Below, piece after piece: positions 22,060 through 22,075 of a stretch of DNA of 64,000 nucleotides (position 1 is the stretch's first letter; every line of letters begins with the position of its first letter). The notes beneath the pieces are model-generated. The model was not told where the DNA came from and ran no database searches. It worked only from the letters and a program-made list of their open reading frames with translations. The translations under genes and the position numbers were made by a program. Source of the stretch: a bacterium (GTDB lineage Bacteria > Bacteroidota > Ignavibacteria > Kapaibacteriales > Kapaibacteriaceae); assembly GCA_034440235.1 (NCBI GenBank), contig JAWXBR010000013.1, positions 2,188 to 66,187 on the forward strand. The letters run 5' to 3'.

Positions 22060-22063
22060 CCCC

Positions 22064-22071
22064 TAAATTTA
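22064..22071. promoter_or_regulatory. Palindromic TAAATTTA (-7-box-like) 4 nt from both divergent ATGs
   Basis: The 16-bp intergenic region is CCCC-TAAATTTA-CGGA; the octamer is self-complementary and one mismatch from TAnnTTTG. Confidence 0.55.
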
Positions 22072-22075
22072 CGGA

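Follow-up and report, generated by a model that had tools for sequence, protein, structure and literature searches.

A conserved palindromic octamer as a candidate two-way leaderless promoter between divergent SDR and M16-like genes in a Kapabacteria-like genome

The SDR/M16 locus and its 16-bp gap

The stretch of DNA analysed here (64,000 nucleotides, hereafter the window) belongs to a metagenome-assembled genome (MAG) of 3.04 Mb in 71 contigs with 51% GC, which is related to Candidatus Kapaibacteriota and was found in microbial-mat metagenomes. Two gene units diverge within it. The minus-strand unit opens with a YdfG-like short-chain dehydrogenase (SDR) of 253 aa (21298-22059, minus strand; assigned from Pfam/NCBIfam matches) and continues with an acylphosphatase (21022-21291) and a second SDR (20111-20983). 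The plus-strand unit opens with an M16-family peptidase-like gene of 444 aa (22076-23410, plus strand; assigned from Pfam and a motif check), followed by a DcuC-like carrier (23475-24797), a class-V aminotransferase (24827-26005) and a MoxR AAA ATPase (26039-27007). An HxxEH zinc motif is missing from the M16-family protein and its match to the N-terminal M16 domain is weak, so it is probably a non-catalytic, M16 subunit-like protein. Its top NCBIfam matches, to the EF-P-modification-associated YfmF/YfmH families, are weak and lie far under the cut-off.

The two units are separated by 16 bp (22060-22075). Read along the plus strand, the order is the CAT of the minus-strand SDR start (22057-22059), CCCC, the octamer TAAATTTA (22064-22071), CGGA and the ATG of the M16-like gene at 22076. 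A first-pass annotation of this DNA had described the gap as 4 nt, a self-complementary octamer and 4 nt, and that description is exact. The M16-side spacer CGGA occupies 22072-22075 on the plus strand, and the SDR-side spacer occupies 22060-22063, reading GGGG on the minus strand; each lies between the octamer and the ATG of its gene. On both strands the octamer carries T-12, A-11, T-8, T-7 and T-6 of the Bacteroidota -7 element, with A in place of G at -5, giving a 5-of-6 match to the consensus per strand, and we read it as a fused Bacteroidota-type -7 box. The hexamer TAAATT can be read on both strands at -12 to -7 from each ATG, which is the layout of a shared melting element.

Both genes start with ATG, and three observations pin these start codons: the TAA within the octamer closes the reading frame of each gene 12 nt before its ATG, the Rossmann nucleotide-binding motif TGASSGIG of the SDR starts at residue 9, and alignments with homologues begin at residue 1 for both proteins. 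With both starts fixed, everything between the two coding regions sits in the 16-bp gap, and a leader would fit only if transcription started inside the opposite gene. The gap sequence contains no Shine-Dalgarno sequence, and none is conserved there among relatives. Within ~260 bp around both starts, no other element with at most one mismatch from TAnnTTTG was found on either strand, apart from one at 22378 inside the M16-like gene, and a scan with the sigma-70 consensus returned no sigma-70-type promoter facing either SDR or M16.

The -7 box and the primary sigma factor of the host genome

Promoters of the sigma-ABfr type, with a -33 TTTG and a -7 TAnnTTTG element, have been mapped in B. fragilis, B. 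thetaiotaomicron, F. johnsoniae and F. psychrophilum (PMC7366714, PMC6847099, PMC9723704). In F. johnsoniae the -7 element occupies -12 to -5 and transcription starts 4-5 nt further on (PMC6847099; also PMC9723704), and the G at -5 is nearly invariant in the Bacteroidota boxes characterised so far (PMC6847099). The host genome encodes a single primary-type (RpoD-like) sigma factor, a predicted protein of 287 aa that matches just the C-terminal RpoD module, and a search for sigma region 1.1 (PF03979) gave no match anywhere in the genome. Such a short predicted sigma factor without region 1.1 is a hallmark of the Bacteroidota sigma-ABfr type (PMC6847099, PMC7366714). The region ahead of the sigma factor gene itself (L056 2115-2160, minus strand, G000:C53) contains a canonical TAACTTTG box, ~37 nt before the ATG of this gene, the position of a leadered promoter.

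The host genome combines this sigma-ABfr-like primary sigma factor with genome-wide use of the motif. There are 725 TAnnTTTG boxes in the genome, and the distance from the end of the box to an ATG that opens at least 100 codons peaks at 3, 4, 5 and 6 nt (20, 38, 25 and 16 boxes, 99 in total) over a background of ~2 boxes per offset at 10-20 nt. A broad hump of boxes 21-45 nt before the ATG corresponds to leadered genes. The pile-up at 3-6 nt indicates that a class of leaderless genes is present in the host genome and, given the register known from F. johnsoniae, ~100 genes are predicted to be leaderless or nearly so. An exact TAnnTTTG box at leaderless distance precedes 107 genes. The aligned profile of these 107 boxes has no detectable -33 motif upstream; G is favoured just before the box (box-1) and C/T just after, and upstream information is otherwise nil, which suggests that 8 bp plus flanks can suffice as a promoter. 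Shine-Dalgarno-like motifs precede only a minority of host genes. The window holds three such exact boxes, TAGATTTG at 10594-10601 (4 nt to the ATG), TACCTTTG at 48783-48790 (3 nt) and TATCTTTG at 62730-62737 (5 nt), in agreement with the earlier remark that the spacing in the SDR/M16 gap is that of exact -7 boxes elsewhere in the window.

Reading one box on two strands imposes a constraint that can be recognised in the sequence. The octamer TAAATTTA is the only one with T-12, A-11, T-8, T-7 and T-6 on both strands. The preferred G-5 is impossible in a palindrome in full register, because this position pairs with T-12 of the other strand; at the "nn" positions, which ordinary boxes leave free, only AA will do, and the preferred G never stands at position 8. 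One-way use of a box should instead let the nn positions and position 8 drift. The variant TAnnTTTA is rare at leaderless distance in the host genome (6 occurrences versus 38 with G, at 4-nt spacing); elsewhere it is found at this distance at, for example, C68:14661, ahead of an MFS-like gene. Genome-wide (3.04 Mb), TAAATTTA occurs at 5 sites where ~43 are expected from base composition, a depletion of ~8-fold.

Two of these sites lie 4 nt from the start of a called gene, namely SDR/M16, where this holds in both directions, and C68:14661, before the MFS-like transporter gene. At a third, C41:95434, the ATG 4 nt away lies within a minus-strand gene. A second CAT/ATG-flanked copy, at C68:14652, was considered as another two-way box and rejected: it is one-way, and the minus-strand open reading frame is a repeat artefact. 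The contig carries a minisatellite at ~14330-14650, upstream of the MFS-like transporter gene, whose minus strand reads as RGEF(S/T)DCS peptide repeats, and the 134-aa open reading frame arising from it looks spurious.

Based on these features, we consider it likely that the 16-bp gap is a complete minimal bidirectional leaderless promoter. The housekeeping RNA polymerase would recognise the -7 box TAnnTTTG at -12 to -5 without needing a detectable -33 element and, since T-12, A-11, T-8, T-7 and T-6 are present on both strands, could bind TAAATTTA in either orientation. Transcription would start 4 nt past the box, at the A of the M16 ATG (22076, plus strand) and at the A of the SDR ATG (22059, minus strand). 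Neither mRNA would have a leader, and translation of each would begin at an AUG at its 5' end. The predicted transcription start sites (TSSs) are separated by 17 bp here; in most relatives, with their 5+8+4 layout, the separation would be 18 bp. The relative G007, for instance, reads CAT-GAGGG-TAAATTTA-TCGA-ATG. The price of fusion would be the loss of G-5 on either strand, as this position pairs with T-12 of the other. The TSS positions, the two-way activity and the leaderless translation of SDR and M16 are what we infer for this locus.

Fused and split boxes in relatives and at a second gene pair

Orthologues of the M16-like gene are present in 61 of 61 relatives, and the divergent pairing of SDR and M16 is kept in all same-family loci examined. 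The core of the gap was recovered in 34 of the 35 family loci fetched, as an exact TAAATTTA in 26 and as a one-base-shorter version (TAAATTA or TAATTTA) in 8; the shorter cores still put TAnnTT at -12 to -7 on both strands. This degree of retention is found across loci in which M16 protein identity goes down to ~35%. In all 26 full-length cores A8 and the AA at positions 3-4 are fixed, and the spacer bases adjoining the core are poorly conserved (mean pairwise identity 0.39 on the SDR side to 0.44). An extended palindromy around the octamer was also considered and rejected, as the flanks are neither symmetric nor conserved. At the level of whole genomes, a search of 51 family genomes for the pattern CAT-N4-6-TAAATTTA-N3-5-ATG gave matches in 39, nearly all of them with a single match, and a reversed control pattern had no matches in the same 51. 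Non-conservation of the octamer and its spacing in relatives had been named at the outset as an outcome that would count against a shared promoter; instead, the core and its distances of 3-6 nt are kept family-wide. Rarity of the octamer and its conservation together rule out a chance origin of the arrangement. Outside the family, the SDR and M16 starts lie ~230 bp apart and an ordinary leadered TATCTTTG box is found.

The distances on the two sides of the core are not equally regular. The box lies 4 nt from the M16 ATG in 27 of 34 family loci, with variable spacer sequence, and 4-6 nt from the SDR start in 31 of 34; in the remaining three it lies 17-21 nt from the SDR start, so the SDR side is not always leaderless. 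The steadier M16 side fits a reading in which the box works one way, most likely for M16, and the SDR is leadered from a promoter inside the M16 coding region, its start merely adjoining the box. Against this reading, the drift to G8 and to free positions 3-4 that one-way use predicts is absent from the full-length cores (26 of 26), and no minus-strand box-like element lies within 260 bp inside the M16-like gene.

A further argument comes from one relative, G003 (locus L036, G003:C1:142849-143797), which serves as a split-box control. Here the SDR and M16 starts are ~100 bp apart, and each gene has a box of its own: TACCTTTG followed by 3 nt and the ATG for M16, and TATTTTTG followed by 4 nt and the ATG for SDR, both with the canonical G-5 and with non-AA bases at the nn positions. 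Between the two canonical leaderless boxes lies a tandemly repeated GC-rich unit (CGCCGCTGCGCGGCAC.ACGCTT...), which has the appearance of an insertion that broke the fused promoter in two. Such split boxes are expected under the fused-box model when one box no longer has to serve both strands, and the SDR box indicates that SDR, and not M16 alone, is served by a box at leaderless distance, contrary to a box working for M16 only.

None of the RNA runs contains the host MAG, and the relative G034 is too thinly covered in them to be informative. The one-way reading may also draw on RNA-labelled data for another relative, G007, which is carried in wastewater or sludge communities and for which assembled contigs of twelve runs were searched: in some runs, contigs covering the SDR reach 17-46 nt into M16, and several contigs cross the gap. 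The crossing contigs stem from runs with DNA-like flat depth or with contigs of 3.8-35 kb (X15, X17 and X18 yielded contigs of this size). Over a 20-kb control region, X20, X25 and X27 have a flat, DNA-like depth of 2.5-6x, and only X28 varies (0.4-31x). In X28, the sole RNA-like run, no contig spans the gap, and the contigs stop 32 and 74 nt short of it. No pile-up of contig ends was seen at the predicted TSSs in the G007 contigs. We therefore treat these contigs as uninformative, neither supporting nor refuting the model. With the fixed A8 and AA and the separate SDR box in G003 on the other side of the balance, promotion of M16 alone by the box appears unlikely.

A second divergent pair in the window has a related layout. 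The 18-bp gap at 7829-7846, AGCGC-TAATTTA-CAGGCT, separates an FAD-dependent protein (CAT at 7826-7828) from an MGMT/ATL-like gene (ATG at 7847). Its minus strand reads TAAATTAG followed by 4 nt and the ATG, and its plus strand TAATTT followed by 7 nt and the ATG. This gap had been flagged as a weaker analogue of the SDR/M16 gap, and relatives confirm the analogy as genuine: between the same two genes there is an exact TAAATTTA in G010, a 7-bp core TAAATTA in G006 and, in G011, G018, G020, G015 and G022, two separate boxes in a gap of 30-48 bp, with 3-5 nt between each box and the start it faces. This alternation of fused and separate layouts suggests that -7 boxes of divergent leaderless genes have fused and split more than once in the family.

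Several side observations concern this second pair. Boxes of a TAnnTTGY type (e.g., TAAATTGC and TATTTTGT) lie 3-6 nt from the ATG of the MGMT-like gene at L066, L068, L070 and L071 (in G013, G008, G015 and G022, respectively) and resemble motif SM5 of F. psychrophilum (PMC9723704). In the window, the MGMT/ATL-like gene (7847-8170, plus strand) has an in-frame TAG at codon 19 (7901-7903) and matches the TIGR00589 ogt superfamily when read through. The same codon is AAG (Lys) in the same-genus G001 and encodes varied residues in other relatives, and the TAG seems to reflect a recent nonsense mutation, decay of the gene to a pseudogene or an error in the MAG consensus. The FAD-dependent protein (open reading frame 6074-7828, minus strand) contains TISADA-like peptide repeats at about residues 239-289 (window ~6960-7114). 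Relatives do not have this run, and their matches split into residues 1-238 and 290-583; the run is probably a coding minisatellite insertion.

Fused boxes are not abundant in the host genome. A survey of divergent gene pairs for such central palindromes, which the first-pass annotation had put forward as a check, was run with a crude gene model and also independently of start calls. It returned one exact fused box, and a common class did not emerge. Gaps of 16-18 bp are not overrepresented among divergent pairs of the host genome. Besides the exact box, two or three weaker fused ones were found, including the gap at 7829-7846 and C9:27787.

A shared promoter and its relation to known systems

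The suggestion that a single element drives two leaderless units in opposite directions is supported, at the level of sequence comparison, by the family conservation, the genome-wide box-to-ATG peak and the analogue pair. A perfect, conserved palindrome that is essentially locus-specific (about one site per genome) is also what is typical of operators, and TAAATTTA might chiefly bind a dimeric regulator of both genes, alone or on top of a promoter function. An operator would be expected to have a dyad of ~12-20 bp and a cognate regulator, usually encoded nearby; here conservation is limited to 8 bp, less than operators usually span, with no conserved dyad extension in the flanks, and none of the neighbours (acylphosphatase, SDR, patatin-Omp85 protein, DcuC-like carrier, aminotransferase and MoxR ATPase) is a DNA-binding protein. 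Moreover, placing the general -7 box on two strands predicts precisely this octamer, and where the layout differs, in G003 and at the second gene pair, two ordinary TAnnTTTG boxes appear instead of a relocated palindrome. We consider a primary operator role very unlikely.

Least credible is a scenario in which both mRNAs are leadered from TSSs inside the opposite genes and the A/T-rich octamer is an unstructured, ribosome-friendly element upstream of both starts: it would accord with the preference of Bacteroidota translation for A/U-rich unstructured start regions (PMC6847099), with the minority of host genes that have Shine-Dalgarno-like motifs and with the gap-crossing contigs of some RNA-labelled runs, but the genome-wide signal is a specific TAnnTTTG motif, whose G does not vary and which keeps sharply to a distance of 3-6 nt, rather than A/U richness, the exact conservation of eight bases is unexpected for a mere unstructured region, and neither opposite gene was found to contain a promoter box.

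A more far-reaching version of the shared-promoter model can also be formulated, in which the fused box is an orientation-competition device that couples the SDR and M16 units through a single occupancy event. One polymerase would exclude the other, both directions would be deliberately weakened by the A in place of G at -5, and there would be no room for a regulator, so that the SDR/M16 ratio would be set only by a few flanking bases or by supercoiling. If this were the case, single-cell expression of the two units would be anticorrelated or noise-partitioned, and this would be conserved across a bacterial family. We regard such a dedicated function as quite improbable.

The simple shared promoter, if confirmed, would be about the smallest conceivable layout for two independent genes, with a 16-bp two-way promoter and no untranslated regions. 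The symmetry principle of two-way promoters, known from sigma-70 hexamers, would then also hold for the Bacteroidota-type -7 box, and the example would come from an uncultured group in which transcription signals were previously unstudied. The fused palindrome and the split canonical boxes of sister genomes form a natural experiment that helps to tell apart what G-5 and the nn bases each contribute. On the practical side, the model supports the correct calling of the SDR and M16 starts and of ~100 other leaderless starts in Kapabacteria-like MAGs, and an element of 16-17 bp could serve as a compact dual-output promoter part in laboratory hosts of the Bacteroidota.

Three known systems provide a frame for these results; in our literature search we found no paper on a fused two-way box for sigma-ABfr-type promoters or for Kapabacteria. 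The sigma-ABfr promoters share with the host boxes the motif, its register, a weak or absent -33 element and a short sigma factor without region 1.1. Leaderless mRNAs are likewise a minority class in both: they make up 3.7-5.5% in other Bacteroidota (PMC7366714, PMC9723704), and the ~107 exact-box genes of the host represent a share resembling this. Unlike the mapped promoters, the SDR/M16 box has A for G-5 on both strands, serves two genes and belongs to a Kapabacteria-like lineage.

Closely juxtaposed divergent leaderless promoters have been described in M. tuberculosis, for example at prpD and its divergent regulator, with a TANNNT -10 element and no strong -35 (PMC3898074). As predicted for SDR/M16, the genes are divergent and both transcripts start at the start codon. 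The M. tuberculosis pairs differ in phylum and in sigma type, and they consist of juxtaposed promoters rather than one fused palindrome in a 16-bp gap.

The closest parallel is offered by promoters with symmetric -10 elements. According to PMC10268837 and PMC12825309, two later papers of the same group that cite Warman, Grainger and colleagues (Nat Microbiol 2021), these yield divergent TSSs 7-25 bp apart, with a mode of 18 bp, and polymerase can bind either way, one binding event excluding the other. The SDR/M16 box resembles this class in having one short melting element with the key T/A bases on both strands and predicted starts ~18 bp apart. It differs in that the candidate element is an 8-bp Bacteroidota-type -7 box and not a sigma-70 hexamer, in that full-register fusion would put the starts 17 bp apart in the host, compared with 18 bp for most relatives and for the variants with a 7-bp core, and in that both the SDR and the M16 products are predicted leaderless mRNAs of protein-coding genes. 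We read the SDR/M16 box as a well-conserved case of a known symmetry principle and not a new mechanism.
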